Of a stretch of 49,207 nucleotides of DNA, positions 11,434 through 46,970 are shown one piece after another. Each line of letters opens with the position of its first letter. Position 1 is the first letter of the stretch. The stretch is taken from assembly GCA_964621395.1 (NCBI GenBank), contig CAZULS010000001.1, forward strand, positions 311,106 through 360,312, read 5' to 3'. The notes beneath the pieces are model-generated. The model made no database searches and was not told the origin of the DNA. It saw nothing but the letters and a program-made list of their open reading frames with translations. The position numbers were made by a program, and so were the translations under genes. The stretch comes from an uncultured Candidatus Saccharibacteria bacterium. Its GTDB lineage: Bacteria; Patescibacteriota; Minisyncoccia; Phycocordibacterales; JACNGX01.

Positions 11434-11470
11434 AAATTGATTTTACCATAACGATATCAAAAAACAAATT

Positions 11471-11641
11471 AGGAAGAGGGATTCTCTCCTTACAGGAGCA
11501 GTGCAGGTTTCCCATTTTTTCGGAGCAGAGCTCCTCAAAAATATGGGAGAACCTTTTCGAATCCCTCACGGAAGCCAAGCAGTTGGCTTCCTCCTCTCCG
11601 CCAAACAAAAATCGCATCCCAAAGTATGCTGATTTTTGAAT
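11471..11641 (-). other. tRNA-Ser 3' tail element with anti-tRNA segment
   Basis: On the minus strand after the tRNA: hairpin, tggcggagagg-a-[ggaagccaactgcttggcttcc]-gt-gagggattcgaa, stem-loop body, then a sense copy gaatccctc. Confidence 0.75.
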
Positions 11642-11731
<90 letters not shown>

Positions 11732-27743: not shown

Positions 27744-27764
27744 CGCCTTTGTACCCGAGAGGGT

Positions 27765-27840
27765 GTCATCCCGCACTTGATGCGGGATCTCGAGAGAGTT
27801 TTCTCATAATGTTTAGATCCCGCATCAAGTGCGGGATGAC
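27765..27840. repeat. Inverted pair of identical GTCATCCC REPs
   Basis: gtcatcccgcacttgatgcgggatc ... gatcccgcatcaagtgcgggatgac. Confidence 0.9.
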
Positions 27841-27902
27841 AGCAAATAGATATTACTGCTATACTAATCTCCTACCTTACTAACGTACTAACCTACTATC
27901 TC

Positions 27903-28007
27903 ATGTTATTCAACCCAAAACACAAAAAAATCATCAAAGCCGTATGGTCTGTGCTCGCAGTACTCATTATGGTCAGTATGGTCATGTTGTACTCATTTTT
28001 TGTATAA
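27903..28007 (+). CDS. 34-aa single-TM microprotein (not in ORF track)
   Basis: MLFNPKHKKIIKAVWSVLAVLIMVSMVMLYSFFV; TATACT upstream. Confidence 0.6.
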   Translation: MLFNPKHKKIIKAVWSVLAVLIMVSMVMLYSFFV

Positions 28008-28444: not shown

Positions 28445-28515
28445 GCGGAATTAGTTAAGTGGTATAACATCAGCTTCCCAAGCTGAGATCGCGAGTTCGA
28501 TTCTCGCATTCCGCA
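28445..28515 (+). tRNA. tRNA-Gly(CCC)
   Basis: GCGGAAT acceptor, tcagc-ttCCCaa-gctga, GTTCGATTC; CCA not encoded. Confidence 0.95.
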
Positions 28516-28694
28516 CAGCCAAAGCGAACCGCCCTGAAGGGGCGGATTTCGCTTTGAGCTGTGCGGAATGAGCGAGCCAACTGCTTGGCTCGCGTCGAGA
28601 ATCGAATGCTCTCCAATATTGCGAGCCGCGCCTGCCTGCCGGCAGGTCCAGCGATACTTGAGAGAATACGAGCCCTTGGGCGAAGTATTATGAT

Positions 28695-28891
28695 TAGAAC
28701 CAGTCTCACTGAAAACGTTGAAAAATAAGGGAAACATATTCAAGAGCTGCGCTTGGCAGTTCTCACGCCCAAACAGCGGCTGCGCCTTGTCGCTCAACCG
28801 CACCGCACGAGAGTGCGGCGCGGTCTCCGCGACATCGGCTCGCTCGCAGTTTGGGCGCGAGAACAAGCCATTTTCAGTGAGACTGGTTCTA
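28695..28891 (-). mobile_element. 197-bp MITE-like structured element, copy 4, inserted in a tRNA-tail module
   Basis: Same TIRs; removing it with one TA restores gatTAGTAatcgtGGGAC. Confidence 0.92.
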
Positions 28892-29012
28892 GTAATCGTG
28901 GGACGATTCTCTCCTTTTTATCAGCCAAAGCGAACCGCCCTGAAGGGGCGGATTTCGCTTTGAGCTGTGCGGAATAGCAAGTGCATTTATGCACTTGCGT
29001 GCGGAATCGAAC

Positions 29013-29113
29013 CGAGCACCACTTTCACTGATTGAGTTATTTGAAGTATTGAATATAGACAGCTCCGTGTAATTTGTAATGGGATTTTAGTGTATAAGTG
29101 AAAGTGGTGCTCG
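29013..29113. mobile_element. ~100-bp element with 17-bp perfect terminal inverted repeats
   Basis: cgagcaccactttcact ... agtgaaagtggtgctcg; relatives at 8894-8990 and 33852-33945. Confidence 0.7.
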
Positions 29114-29233
29114 ACGTCCAGGAGTACTTTGCGGATTGCGAATACCTGGAGCAATACGCTTAGTAACTCCGGGACGATTCTCGCACTAATGAGCGAGCCG
29201 TACTATAGGCTCGTGTCGAGAATTATTTTCGCC

Positions 29234-33774: not shown

Positions 33775-33851
33775 GCCGAGGTAGCTCAGTTGGCTAGAGC
33801 ACTGGTCTGAAGAACCAGGTGTCGGCGGTTCGAGCCCGCCCCTCGGCACCA
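33775..33851 (+). tRNA. tRNA-Phe(GAA)
   Basis: GCCGAGG acceptor, ctggt-ctGAAga-accag, GGTTCGAGCCC, encoded CCA. Confidence 0.96.
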
Positions 33852-34349
33852 AGCACCACTTTTATAAATAGACACATGGTATACCCATGTGTCTATTTGC
33901 TTAGCCCTCTCTGTGGTATTTTTCGTAATCAATAAAAGTGGTGCTTGGTGCCGAGGGAATGCCACACCTCACACGTGATTTTTTTATATAGAGCCAGGTT
34001 TCTTTAATGCCTATTATATTTGTTTATGAACATAAAAGCGTATGAGGTGTGGCATGTGCGGGCTCGAACGGCGCAGCTATATCGGAGCAGTTTACTGCGA
34101 CGATTGCGAGCCGCGTCTGATACCACTCTTTCATTTTTCTCTCAAAACAATTGTTAGAGATAATGTAGGTAAAGAGAAGTGCGATATACGCTATAGATAC
34201 GAGAGTGGTATCAGACGAGCCCGCCCACAAAATATTTCGAGCAAAATGTAACATGTGCGGGCTTGAGACTAGCCTATAGACAAATTATCTTTCTTGATGT
34301 AGTCTACGGAGAGGTTAGTTACGGAAAAATAATTTAAACATGATATAAA

Positions 34350-46687: not shown

Positions 46688-46896
46688 TTCAATTCCTGTG
46701 TCGCCGCACAGATACAACACATGAATGTCCCGGAGTTACTAAGCGTATTGCTTCGCTAAAGCTCGCAATCCGCTAAGTACTCCTGGACGCGGCTCGCAGC
46801 CCCGCAAGCGGGGACCCACTGCTCCGCCGTTCAATTCATGTGTCGCCTCACAAATACATAATAAGCACGGAGGCATGCTCCGTACTTATGTATTTG
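46688..46896 (-). other. tRNA-Val 3' tail element (anti-tRNA, GTCCA...GGGAC module, second anti-tRNA)
   Basis: Minus strand: hairpin, ggcgacacatgaattgaac, gcgagccgcgtccaggagtacttagcggattgc...gcaatacgcttagtaactccgggac, attcatgtg, ggcgacacaggaattgaa. Confidence 0.8.
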
Positions 46897-46970
46897 TGGG
46901 CGACACAGGAATTGAACCTGTGACCTTCACAATGTCAATGTGACGCTCTAACCATCTGAGCTAGCCGCCC
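46897..46970 (-). tRNA. tRNA-Val(GAC)
   Basis: GGGCGGC acceptor, tcaca-ttGACat-tgtga, GGTTCAATTCC. Confidence 0.95.

Follow-up and report, generated by a model that had tools for sequence, protein, structure and literature searches.

Here we describe tails of structured, gene-free DNA that stand behind more than half of the tRNA genes of a Patescibacteria genome (G000; 744 kb, 96.7% complete), the source of the 49,207-nt stretch of DNA that was analysed (the window, to which all positions refer). Read on the tRNA strand, each unit of a tail (170–400 nt, with no gene carried) comprises a terminator-like hairpin (H1), the reverse complement of tRNA positions ~54–74 (the antisense arm), a cargo and a direct copy of positions ~57–74. 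We tentatively read the tails, at a little below an even chance, as a non-autonomous fold-back repeat family for tRNA 3′ ends, in which the arms would be DNA copies of the neighbouring gene and the cargo would be selected as a tRNA-sense single strand. Patchy presence, variable arrays, near-identical modules and inserts suggest, at the level of sequence, that the tails behave as a repeat family and not as a housekeeping part. No description of such tails was found in those parts of the literature that a full-text search reached.

Unit anatomy and the tail behind tRNA-Gly(CCC)

The antisense arm is usually split at positions 65/64 by a conserved 25-nt hairpin (Hvar). The module type of cargo consists of a further hairpin (H2) and a 60-nt rod hairpin (the module), and at least two other cargo types occupy the same slot. 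Arrays take the form tRNA–H1–arm–(cargo–copy–H1–arm)n, with an antisense arm last in the loci read. A first-pass annotation of the window had described six unit parts, all of which are in the sequence (some coordinates were off by a few bases), and had correctly called the element non-coding. Its contrast between the inverted copies seen here and the direct repeats of ordinary att duplications has to be corrected: each unit also ends in a direct repeat of the tRNA 3′ end. The tail behind tRNA-Gly(CCC) has the following features:

28445–28516, + strand: tRNA-Gly(CCC) gene (ARAGORN; Rfam tRNA, 71.8 bits); its last ~21 nt (S0), copied in the arms, comprise the T loop (28496–28502), the 3′ strand of the T stem, the 3′ strand of the acceptor, and the discriminator plus C
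28517–28560, + strand: H1 copy 1, an inverted-repeat hairpin directly 3′ of the tRNA gene, with the look of a bidirectional terminator
28561–28570, + strand: acceptor part of the unit 1 antisense arm, reverse complement of tRNA positions 65–74
28571–28595, + strand: unit 1 Hvar, a 25-nt hairpin ending in GT that splits the complements of positions 65 and 64
28596–28606, + strand: T part of the unit 1 antisense arm, reverse complement of positions 54–64 (11/11 exact)
28607–28645, + strand: unit 1 H2 slot, with an atypical form of the pre-module hairpin
28646–28904, + strand: module copy 1, a 64-nt rod hairpin with a nested insert (partial model match)
~28696–28892: nested inverted-repeat insert of ~197 nt in module copy 1 (arms 28690–28715 and 28871–28896)
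28905–28921, + strand: sense copy closing unit 1, of which the first 7 nt (28905–28911) equal tRNA positions 57–63 and the remainder has diverged
28922–28975, + strand: second copy of an exact 54-nt repeat, comprising H1 copy 2 and the acceptor part of the unit 2 antisense arm
28976–29000, + strand: hairpin of a second kind in the unit 2 Hvar slot, different from the unit 1 Hvar
29001–29012, + strand: T part of the unit 2 antisense arm, a better fit to the T arm of tRNA-Pro than to that of tRNA-Gly
29013–29113, + strand: inverted-repeat insert of ~100 nt in the unit 2 H2 slot
29116–29175, + strand: module copy 2, a 60-nt rod hairpin (model R1, 81.6 bits)
29176–29186, + strand: sense copy closing unit 2 (tRNA positions 57–67)
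29191–29216 and 29217–29223, + strand: Hvar-kind hairpin and T-part fragment of a partial third antisense arm, at the end of the Gly array

H1 copy 1 sits at the middle of a palindrome whose two sides are the tRNA 3′ end and the antisense arm. The exact 54-nt repeat (28516–28569 and 28922–28975) is part of a 72-nt repeat with 90% identity. Both Gly H1 copies are terminator-like on both strands, each with a G+C-rich hairpin and a T run (a function predicted from a consensus scan). The reverse complement of the acceptor 3′ strand is seen three times (28561–28569, 28967–28975 and 28999–29007), and the 8-nt core of the unit 1 T part is found again at 29004–29011. Hvar starts with an A and ends in GT; between them, a 7-bp stem closes the conserved loop AACTGCTT. 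This frame recurs with covarying stems behind many tRNAs. An ordinary H2 hairpin is present at the unit 2 H2 position in a related genome. We considered a foreign (tRNA-Pro) arm at 29001–29012 but do not take it as clean evidence of transfer, the letters also being those of the Gly acceptor complement followed by the T-loop complement.

At 85% likeness in four DNA runs, contigs break at the repeats. One low-depth contig (run X3) joins 28515 to 28922 and skips unit 1, and one contig is without the insert at 29013–29113; both joints lie at repeats with less than 95% likeness, and neither counts as evidence.

The window holds other tails, among them the one behind tRNA-Val that the first-pass annotation had also noticed, with its module and with arms that do match Val:

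46896–46970, − strand: tRNA-Val(GAC) gene, the second tail host
46688–46895, − strand: tRNA-Val tail (model 87.3 bits), with H1 (46852–46895), an antisense arm without the Hvar split (46829–46851), H2 (46789–46828), module (46727–46788), sense copy (46717–46726) and a second, solo antisense arm (46688–46710)
11642–11731, − strand: tRNA-Ser(GGA) gene
11470–11641 (lower bound approximate), − strand: tRNA-Ser(GGA) tail, with H1, an antisense arm with Hvar, type 2 cargo and a sense copy
33775–33851, + strand: tRNA-Phe gene
33852–34150 (upper bound approximate), + strand: tRNA-Phe tail, with both antisense arm parts, an H2 hairpin and a disrupted module region; inverted-repeat inserts occupy its H1 and Hvar slots

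Copies of the tRNA 3′ end in arms and direct repeats

In G000, 25 of the 44 tRNAs have 10 nt or more of their own last 24 nt repeated exactly, in antisense, within the next 300 nt downstream, compared with 1/44 in the upstream control, so that the pattern exceeds chance; 19 of the 44 tRNAs are without an arm. Sense copies of at least 10 nt are found downstream of 12/44 tRNAs versus upstream of 1/44. The direct copy is often a perfect 17–19-nt repeat of the tRNA 3′ end (for example, Arg-TCT, Gln, His and Gly-TCC), and over the first units of 24 tails, tRNA, arm and direct copy are identical at 340 of the 408 positions compared. Behind Ile-GAT and Ala-TGC of the same genome there are plain direct duplications without antisense arms.

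The arms follow their cognate tRNA, as the first-pass annotation had expected, even where the tRNA itself has changed: in a congeneric genome, a species-specific variant of the tRNA-Gly T arm is present in both the arm and the direct copy, and this variant includes a T-loop position outside the span of the direct copy. Arm mismatches show no strand bias (20 G-T, 12 A-C and 45 other), as expected of decaying copies. Behind tRNA-Val and the tmRNA gene, which also carries tails, arm and direct copy have common changes that are absent from the tRNA or tmRNA, a class that accounts for only 2 of 408 positions in the larger set; these changes suggest that the arm and the direct copy pair or are copied from one another, and speak against the fold-back reading.

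The junctions are very precise in dozens of different tRNAs and genomes. Hvar invariably separates the complements of 65 and 64 and is flanked by the same A and GT, and the cargo is invariably bounded by the complement of 54 and position 57/58. In every case read, the tRNA keeps an intact 3′ end. Two readings were rejected. One is a mimic of the tRNA top half that would be cut by RNase P; the discriminator and the next base of these units are paired as well. The other is a direct copy that would serve as a spare 3′ half, or an intron, to be joined to the body of the tRNA; G000 has no RtcB match (PF01139), and the tRNA 3′ ends are intact.

Integration into tRNA and tmRNA genes classically leaves a direct repeat of the 3′ end of the gene. 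The tails are like such integrative elements in their 3′-end insertion, a direct repeat that starts in the T loop, an intact tRNA and tandem arrays, and they could be scars of integrase-driven elements, with the direct copy as the displaced 3′ end (attR) and the rest as a remnant of the element end. The perfect 17–19-nt repeats from the T loop that bracket units fit such an origin, as do the plain duplications at Ile-GAT and Ala-TGC. We nevertheless hold it to be very improbable. Integrative elements are unlike the gene-free tails, in which one conserved cargo stands behind ~28 tRNA types, whereas an integrase has one target; neither the inverted target copy in every unit nor the covarying hairpins are features of att sites. 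In G000, every direct repeat of a tRNA end lies within ~430 nt of its tRNA, which leaves no island. As to the marks of an integrative element, the flanking direct repeat is there, but a dedicated integrase was found neither in the element nor in the genome. No integrase was seen beyond one Xer-like gene, and a single tyrosine recombinase match (PF00589) was obtained in each of G000 and the copy-rich genomes G001, G002, G037, G051 and G056.

Fold and spread of the module

In the 12 module copies of G000 that were aligned, 10 of the 20 pairs of the rod have changed on both sides. Among 34 matches from other genomes, 98.4% of cells pair and 16/20 pairs carry compensatory changes; the covariation score was reached by none of 500 shuffles, and pairing in slid controls stays at or below 42% of cells. 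The covariation between units that had been pointed out in the first-pass annotation is thereby borne out. The module is also strand-biased (30 G-U versus 0 A-C), with the more stable fold on the sense strand in 76 of 81 copies; the H2 hairpin has no clear G-U bias. Compensatory changes thus keep the pairs on one strand only, as in a structured RNA or a single-strand fold. From arm to direct copy, the unit is predicted to form five helices (−91.8 kcal/mol, z = −7.6), and in the fold predicted for a read-through transcript, the downstream direct copy pairs with the tRNA 5′ strand, and the arm with the tRNA 3′ half. In our reading, recurring loop motifs with covarying stems include CTTG tetraloops closed by G-C and tandem G-A. 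Only tRNA reached the Rfam (release 15) gathering score in the window, and searches of the tails at E up to 10 or 1 gave sub-threshold chance matches only, likewise at loci with other cargo types; the module, of which the first-pass annotation knew no description, has no family match.

The module is present in ~20 copies in G000 (21 matches to model R1) and in 24 of 61 genomes of the same order, the other 37 being without it. Among named Patescibacteria records, a same-strand tRNA lies no more than 800 nt ahead of 70 of the 83 model matches, at a distance of 83–173 nt in 56 of these 70, and the hosts cover 28 anticodon types. This agrees with the placement at tRNA 3′ ends that had been proposed. 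None of the four checks by which the first-pass annotation could have been refuted, on placement, arms, covariation and known families, went against the observation. In three module-free genomes, both arms were found at 1 of 47 sampled tRNAs. Under strict filters, with 35 candidates scored in each genome, none of 150 other genomes sampled from the phylum gave a match. True matches do occur in some named records labelled Saccharibacteria, Woesebacteria or Peregrinibacteria, and our claim is therefore limited to the family being common in this order. A strict module pattern hit no viral contig. A phage origin was rejected: a looser pattern hit at least 118 viral stretches, of which none of the 80 examined matches model R1, and these are chance matches.

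Tails are also variable between close relatives. Unit order and type vary at the same tRNA in three congeneric genomes, modules that differ by one base are found behind different tRNAs, nested inserts or truncation break some copies, and one array holds perfect tandem units. By GC skew (hand tally), 16 tails point the same way as replication and 10 are head-on to it, so that orientation follows the tRNA and not replication. Many other nested hairpin repeats are present in these genomes.

The main rival to the fold-back reading, possible but on the unlikely side in our estimate, is that the tails serve the host as cis-acting RNA devices within the tRNA precursor. After read-through of H1, the arm would capture the tRNA 3′ half or pair with the direct copy, and the cargo hairpins would bind a factor, with control of 3′-end formation, quality control or decay of read-through tRNA transcripts as the outcome. 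A fold selected only on the tRNA-sense strand, loop motifs that are common in RNA, the predicted five-helix unit, a read-through fold that engages the tRNA with both of its copies, and an orientation that goes with transcription are all consistent with such devices, and tRNA 3′ processing is unusual in this order anyway, with an RNase Z match over the cut-off in 0 of 61 genomes. The module is dispensable, however, given the 37 genomes without it, of which the three sampled are also without arms, and the armless tRNAs of G000 argue in the same direction, as do copies interrupted by inserts or truncated and arrays that vary among congeners. Arm mismatches are not tilted towards wobble pairs, and H1 should end most transcription ahead of the arm.

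Candidate enzymes and the origin of the tails

The first-pass annotation had proposed a mobile element or a cis switch with arms templated from the host tRNA, and had named a reverse transcriptase, an integrase and an HUH protein as possible partners. The tRNA-derived arms are supported; the named enzyme classes do not fit. No reverse transcriptase (PF00078) was matched in G000, G001 or G002, the three genomes of the genus and the richest in modules, and the domain occurs in 8/24 module-positive versus 17/37 module-negative genomes. The integrase search yielded the one tyrosine recombinase per genome given above. The only HUH candidate of G000 is a RAYT-like gene with one weak Y1_Tnp match (22.3 bits; NF047646 at 36 bits, below the cut-off of 80), which is flanked by other short palindromes on a contig without a module. 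This gene is present in G000–G002, in 19 of the 24 module-positive and in 20 of the 37 module-negative genomes (related genomes, so that the counts are not independent), and with this query it is absent from G051, which has seven modules, and from the single-contig G048; its presence tracks the module weakly. Neither IS110 DEDD (PF01548) nor the TnpB domain (PF07282) gave a match in G000, and an integron integrase was not found. Over the 61 genomes, none of RAYT-like gene, reverse transcriptase, tyrosine recombinase and RNase Z separates those with the module from those without it. Clustering of 512 open frames from ~95 loci gave no neighbouring protein cluster that recurs in more than eight loci: the largest (8 loci) is presumably a housekeeping GTPase and the second (6 loci, beside tRNA-Pro) we take to be a small nuclease, both judged by their first residues.

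A mobile element served by a dedicated, unrecognised activity on single-stranded DNA or RNA, in which the arm and the direct copy would pair with the target strands and so choose the target, is in our view unlikely. The activity could be the RAYT-like HUH protein or a factor coded outside the assembled genomes. Such an element would account for the precise junctions, for antisense and sense target copies in one unit, like guides reading both strands, and for strand-specific hairpins; the many other nested hairpin repeats of the same genomes and the presence of the RAYT-like gene in G000–G002 and most module-positive genomes also fit. The distribution and the flanking palindromes of that gene do not, there is no lagging-strand template bias, the viral searches gave neither a strict match nor a module in 80 loci, and guides that are carried along leave the perfect fit of arms to ~28 tRNAs unexplained.

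Comparison with known systems gives partial likenesses. REP/REPIN sequences with RAYT, and IS200/IS605 miniatures, are likewise short, multi-copy intergenic hairpins with a strand-specific fold, and there is a single HUH Y1 gene here; unlike REP/REPINs, which go with RAYT, the tails differ from the palindromes beside the RAYT-like gene and are site-bound with target-derived flanks, and unlike IS200/IS605 miniatures they have neither TnpB nor a lagging-strand bias. The bridge (seek) RNAs of IS110/IS1111 also match both target strands with a structured non-coding part, but G000 has no DEDD recombinase, and the tail arms are 18–21 nt long, contiguous with the target copy and locus-specific. In integron attC and the CTX phage attP hairpin, too, an inverted pair in one strand can rebuild the target duplex and one strand is structured; the tails, by contrast, would mimic a different tRNA at each locus, and no integron integrase was found. 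Group IIC introns insert just 3′ of intrinsic terminator hairpins and are oriented by the hairpin. The tails share the site behind a terminator hairpin and the hairpin-set orientation, but have no intron RNA core, and their richest genomes no reverse transcriptase. An improbable further reading is programmable, nucleic-acid-guided insertion, in which the arm and the direct copy would pair with both strands at the 3′ end of a tRNA gene, a host factor or unrecognised enzyme would join the strands at the T loop, and the arms would be rewritten from the new target at each hop, such that one cargo could enter any tRNA or tmRNA gene and leave it unbroken.

In quasi-palindrome correction by template switching, an imperfect inverted repeat becomes perfect in one step. 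Under the fold-back reading, both tRNA-derived flanks would be DNA-level copies of the adjoining gene, and not guides brought from elsewhere, which would be written and later rewritten by such fold-back or template-switch copying over hairpins, with the direction of copying fixed by selection on the tRNA. The cargo would shift between tRNA loci via short sequences shared by the arms (GAATCGAA on one side and GATTC on the other), which are common to all arms because the T loop is conserved, and the local palindrome would be duplicated during the transfer. Selection on the tRNA-sense single-strand fold, most likely as RNA from H1 read-through, would keep the cargo; a dedicated enzyme may exist. 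Orthologous Gly loci have three H1 versions, which differ as though the left arm had been made to match the right in one copy and the right to match the left in another; these differences we read from sequence comparison as probable visible traces of template-switch correction. Quasi-palindrome correction fits these variants and the tRNA-following arms, but it is a process and not an element, and leaves the cargo and its first arrival at a tRNA unexplained.

Several observations go against the fold-back reading. Precise junctions are more easily produced by a site-specific activity than by rare template switches, and the high occupancy (25 of 44 tRNAs) speaks for an efficient process. Since H1 mostly resembles a good terminator, the amount of cargo sense RNA is in doubt, and H2, with no clear G-U bias, does not share the strand preference of the module. 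H1 is also not the same in successive units of several arrays (Arg-TCT, Asn and Ser-TGA), differences that a simple duplication of the local palindrome does not predict.

If the fold-back reading is true, ultra-small Patescibacteria would harbour a repeat family that fills most of their tRNA 3′ flanks and takes its own flanks from the neighbouring gene in both orientations, and there would be a route by which non-coding DNA spreads among all tRNA genes without harm and without an obvious enzyme. The tails account for assembly breaks and for odd intergenic DNA behind tRNAs in these metagenome-assembled genomes, and make the 3′ ends of tRNA genes stand out as fast-changing regions. Two conserved, well-defined hairpins, the 60-nt rod and the 25-nt Hvar with its invariant loop, are candidate sites to which a partner would bind. 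Were the arms guides, the system would merit interest as a means of targeted insertion; were the cargo a working RNA, it would be relevant to tRNA 3′-end formation in a lineage without an RNase Z match over the cut-off.

Tails downstream of tRNA genes

The genome under study (G000) comprises 744 kb in 6 contigs and is 96.7% complete, and seven of its tRNA genes lie in the window, C1:311106-360312. One of these, tRNA-Gly(CCC) at 28445-28516, is followed directly by two units and a partial third. Each unit consists of a hairpin (H1), an antisense arm split by a variable hairpin (Hvar), a cargo, and a sense copy of the tRNA 3' end; the cargo here is a 60-nt rod hairpin, hereafter the module, which is preceded by a further hairpin slot (H2). 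Inspection of the sequence found every unit part listed in the first-pass annotation.

Parts of the tail of tRNA-Gly(CCC), in window coordinates
28517-28560: unit 1, H1, a terminator-like hairpin
28561-28570: unit 1, acceptor part of the arm, reverse complement of tRNA positions 65-74
28571-28595: unit 1, Hvar, a 25-nt hairpin
28596-28606: unit 1, T part of the arm, reverse complement of positions 54-64
Between the T part of the arm and the module: unit 1, H2 region, atypical
28646-28904: unit 1, module, interrupted by a nested inverted-repeat insert
28905-28911: unit 1, sense copy of T loop and T stem
28922-28975: unit 2, exact 54-nt repeat of H1 and acceptor arm
Hvar slot: unit 2, a hairpin unlike that of unit 1, then the T part of the arm
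H2 slot: unit 2, a 100-nt inverted-repeat insert
29116-29175: unit 2, module
29176-29186: unit 2, sense copy
29191-29223: partial arm closing the array

The tail of tRNA-Val(GAC), on the minus strand, has the same order of parts with arms that match Val, and its module (46727-46788) is nearly identical to that of Gly unit 2, as had been noted.

The insert nested in the first Gly module (28696-28892) is an inverted repeat with CACTGA-type ends and 26-nt terminal inverted repeats, and the ends of the insert at 29013-29113 are related to them. In the runs of the source metagenome the former is covered about tenfold more deeply than its flanks and is therefore a high-copy miniature element that lands inside tails too. 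Upstream of tRNA-Gly, a short repeat at about 27760-27910 has dozens of matching places on both strands of the congeneric genome G002, and is a further interspersed palindromic repeat family.

Genome-wide, the covariance model of the module finds 21 places in G000. Behind its host tRNAs the module is always on the tRNA strand. The hosts are Gly-TCC, Gly-CCC, Thr-GGT, Val-GAC, Val-TAC, Arg-TCG, Arg-TCT, Asn, Pro-GGG, Lys-CTT, Leu-TAG, Leu-TAA and Glu-CTC. The single seemingly tRNA-less copy lies downstream of a tmRNA gene (C1:225461-225913, minus strand; 98.7 bits in Rfam, missed by ARAGORN), which is followed by two tail units, one module holding a 190-nt insert. In a model-free test (exact matches of at least 10 nt to the final 24 nt of the same tRNA, in the 300 nt beyond the gene), antisense copies were present downstream of 25 of the 44 tRNAs versus 1 of 44 in the upstream control, and sense copies downstream of 12 of 44 versus 1 upstream.

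Several tRNAs have the same kind of arms with other, conserved cargo. A type of about 70 nt (type 2) follows Ser-TGA and Ser-GGA (in the window, gene 11642-11731, tail 11470-11641), and one of about 110 nt (type 3) follows Ser-GCT, Pro-TGG and Gln-TTG; neither matched an Rfam family. Besides the tail in the window, loci of these types are at C1:48591, C2:19155, C1:135040 and C2:258810. Tyr, Cys and Arg-GCG have hairpin, arm and Hvar with the cargo absent. The 70-nt type is also nested within the module behind tRNA-Val(TAC). Separately, tRNA-Ile GAT (C2:1367) and tRNA-Ala TGC (C2:220776) have direct duplications of their 3' ends 100-140 nt downstream, with neither antisense arm nor module; these resemble ordinary scars of integration, of a different kind. 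On a small contig, at C5:5084, ARAGORN calls a tRNA with anticodon CTA (labelled Pyl) beside another tRNA-Val(GAC); this could be a suppressor-like tRNA, or the contig could be of foreign origin.

Arms that match the tRNA, folded cargo and turnover of units

The arms track the adjacent gene. Across 24 first units, tRNA, arm and direct copy are identical at 340 of 408 compared positions; the direct copy alone deviates at 22, both copies jointly at 2, and the arm alone at 43, of which some fall at the Hvar junction, our split of the arm being artificial there. A congeneric tRNA-Gly(CCC) orthologue has a different T stem and a T-loop change, and its arm carries all of these changes, including a loop position outside the direct copy, in line with the earlier claim that arms follow their tRNA. 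The arm is the complement of the tRNA 3' strand and not a copy of the 5' strand: at a G-U pair in the tRNA-Val acceptor stem it has A, not G. In tRNA-Val and tmRNA, some changes are common to arm and direct copy and absent from the gene; copying or pairing between these two therefore also occurs.

The module behaves differently from the arms. The 12 G000 copies align as a rod hairpin of 20 pairs with compensatory changes in 10, and the T/C preceding ACT covaries with the A/G of TAGTA/TAGTG. In a set of 34 hits from genomes other than G000, 98.4% of cells are paired, 16 of 20 pairs have changed on both sides, bearing out the covariation first seen in the window, and the covariation score was reached by none of 500 shuffles; sliding the partners by 1 to 3 columns lowers pairing to 29-42%. 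Wobble pairs are confined to the tRNA-sense strand (G-U/U-G in 30 cells, A-C/C-A in 0), and in 76 of 81 copies this strand folds more stably than the complementary one. Selection therefore acts on the fold of a single strand, be it RNA or single-stranded DNA. An Rfam search of the window and tails gave no family matching it, as anticipated. By contrast, the non-Watson-Crick cells of the arms include all types (G-T 20, A-C 12 and other 45 cells against the tRNA; 18, 10 and 30 against the direct copy) and thus resemble decaying copies, whereas the cargo resembles a selected fold.

Hvar occupies the exact junction of the position-65 and position-64 complements. The constant frame of this hairpin is A, a 7-bp stem (G first, C last), the loop AACTGCTT or a close variant, and GT, and the six inner stem pairs covary freely in at least 30 copies. 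With the same flanks, the slot also takes longer inverted-repeat inserts (Gly-TCC, Lys-CTT, Phe and Pro-CGG). Units turn over: their order and type at the same tRNA-Gly differ among three congeneric genomes, H2 and module types are combined variously across loci, and two tRNAs can have modules that are one base apart (Arg-TCG with Glu-CTC, Gly-CCC with Asn). In G002, one array has two perfect tandem units of 176 nt. All three congeneric tRNA-Gly arrays close with a solo arm adjoining the downstream gene, a rule of terminal antisense arms that is based on five arrays read closely and tallied by hand. The three H1 versions at the Gly locus look as though one side of the hairpin had been corrected to match its partner, with the direction of correction reversed between two copies; in our reading of these three sequences, which is not statistical, template-switch correction of imperfect palindromes would leave such a footprint.

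A cis-acting RNA role for the tails would agree with the strand evidence, the motifs and the predicted folds, yet the tails are dispensable, copies are broken and arm mismatches are unbiased, none of which fits such a role, and we consider it unlikely.

Distribution in related genomes

The tails are patchily distributed. The model matches 24 of 61 genomes of the same order, at up to 22 places per genome, compared with none of 150 in an even sample of the phylum under strict filters; the module is therefore common in the order and, across the remainder of the sample, scarce or missing. All genomes compared are metagenome bins, and relatives are not independent counts. A pattern scan of 185,579 species genomes returned 65 stretches: the model confirmed module hits in those from Patescibacteria and in neither of two records from other phyla. 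The predicted enrichment at tRNA 3' ends extends to these genomes, since 70 of 83 confirmed sense hits have a same-strand tRNA ending within 800 nt upstream (83-173 nt from the module in 56 of the 70; 28 anticodon types), against 12 of 83 with one starting within 800 nt downstream and 10 of 83 with an opposite-strand tRNA within 800 nt. Nine of the 13 hits without an upstream tRNA are no more than 250 nt from where the retrieved stretch begins. At loci read by eye, the arm matches the tRNA of its own locus, and downstream of the module is a direct repeat of that tRNA's 3' end; this repeat begins at position 56-58, extends one base past the discriminator and is often perfect across 17-19 nt. 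In three module-free genomes of the order, both arms stand behind only 1 of 47 sampled tRNAs; arms and cargo are therefore gained and lost jointly.

Mobilization and relation to known systems

The usual enzymes are missing, or follow the module weakly or not at all. Protein-family searches of G000 gave no IS110 DEDD enzyme, reverse transcriptase, TnpB domain or RtcB, and one tyrosine recombinase and one RAYT-like HUH tyrosine transposase gene (C4:21540-22334; L011:1258-2055). The latter has palindromes of its own on its flanks, short and of the CCAAAG...CTTTGG type, which occur at least nine times in G000; among relatives the gene reaches 13 copies (in G043). The first-pass annotation had advised looking for a co-occurring reverse transcriptase, integrase or HUH gene; across the 61 genomes, the first two do not separate genomes with the module from those without it, and the HUH gene tracks it only weakly. 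By hand tally, reverse transcriptases occur in 8 of 24 module-positive versus 17 of 37 module-negative genomes (and in none of the three of this genus), and the RAYT-like gene in 19 of 24 versus 20 of 37, being missed in one genome with 7 modules (G051); nearly every genome, including six copy-rich ones, has one tyrosine recombinase. Neighbour comparison found no protein recurring beside tails, and the viral contigs tested lack the module. Tails resemble integrative elements in the direct repeat at the tRNA end, and island-sized direct repeats of tRNA ends were not found; that they are plain integrase scars is very improbable.

Our tentative account, to which we give somewhat less than even weight, combines three steps. 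Arms would arise when fold-back or template-switch copying across hairpins takes the adjacent gene as template, and would keep in step with the tRNA because only changes sparing it survive; cargo would pass between loci through the T-loop-derived sequences common to all arms; and the cargo fold would act as an RNA produced by read-through. Three points tell against this account: precise junctions, high occupancy and the predicted strength of H1 as a terminator. Orientation relative to replication, from GC skew and hand tally, is mixed (16 co-oriented, 10 head-on), which speaks against a lagging-strand-template mechanism. Precise junctions and high occupancy would be easier to explain by a specific activity, and for that reason we allow a small, though real, chance that an unrecognised enzyme or guide mechanism moves the tails. 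The bolder form, a programmable nucleic-acid-guided insertion system with arms rewritten from each new target, we regard as highly unlikely.

None of the 61 genomes from the order has an RNase Z match above the curated cut-off, and the majority of tRNA genes here lack an encoded CCA, so the order may mature its tRNA 3' ends in an unusual way.

In their multi-copy hairpins the tails recall REP, REPIN and miniature IS200/IS605 elements, in their position behind terminators group IIC introns, and in their paired antisense and sense target copies bridge RNAs and folded single-strand att sites. Every membership test that we ran failed on some defining feature, and a full-text literature search, judged by titles and the openings of abstracts, returned no description of such tRNA tails. 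We place them with interspersed structured repeats and tRNA-gene-targeting elements, among which their new feature is flanks templated by the target, both inverted and direct.
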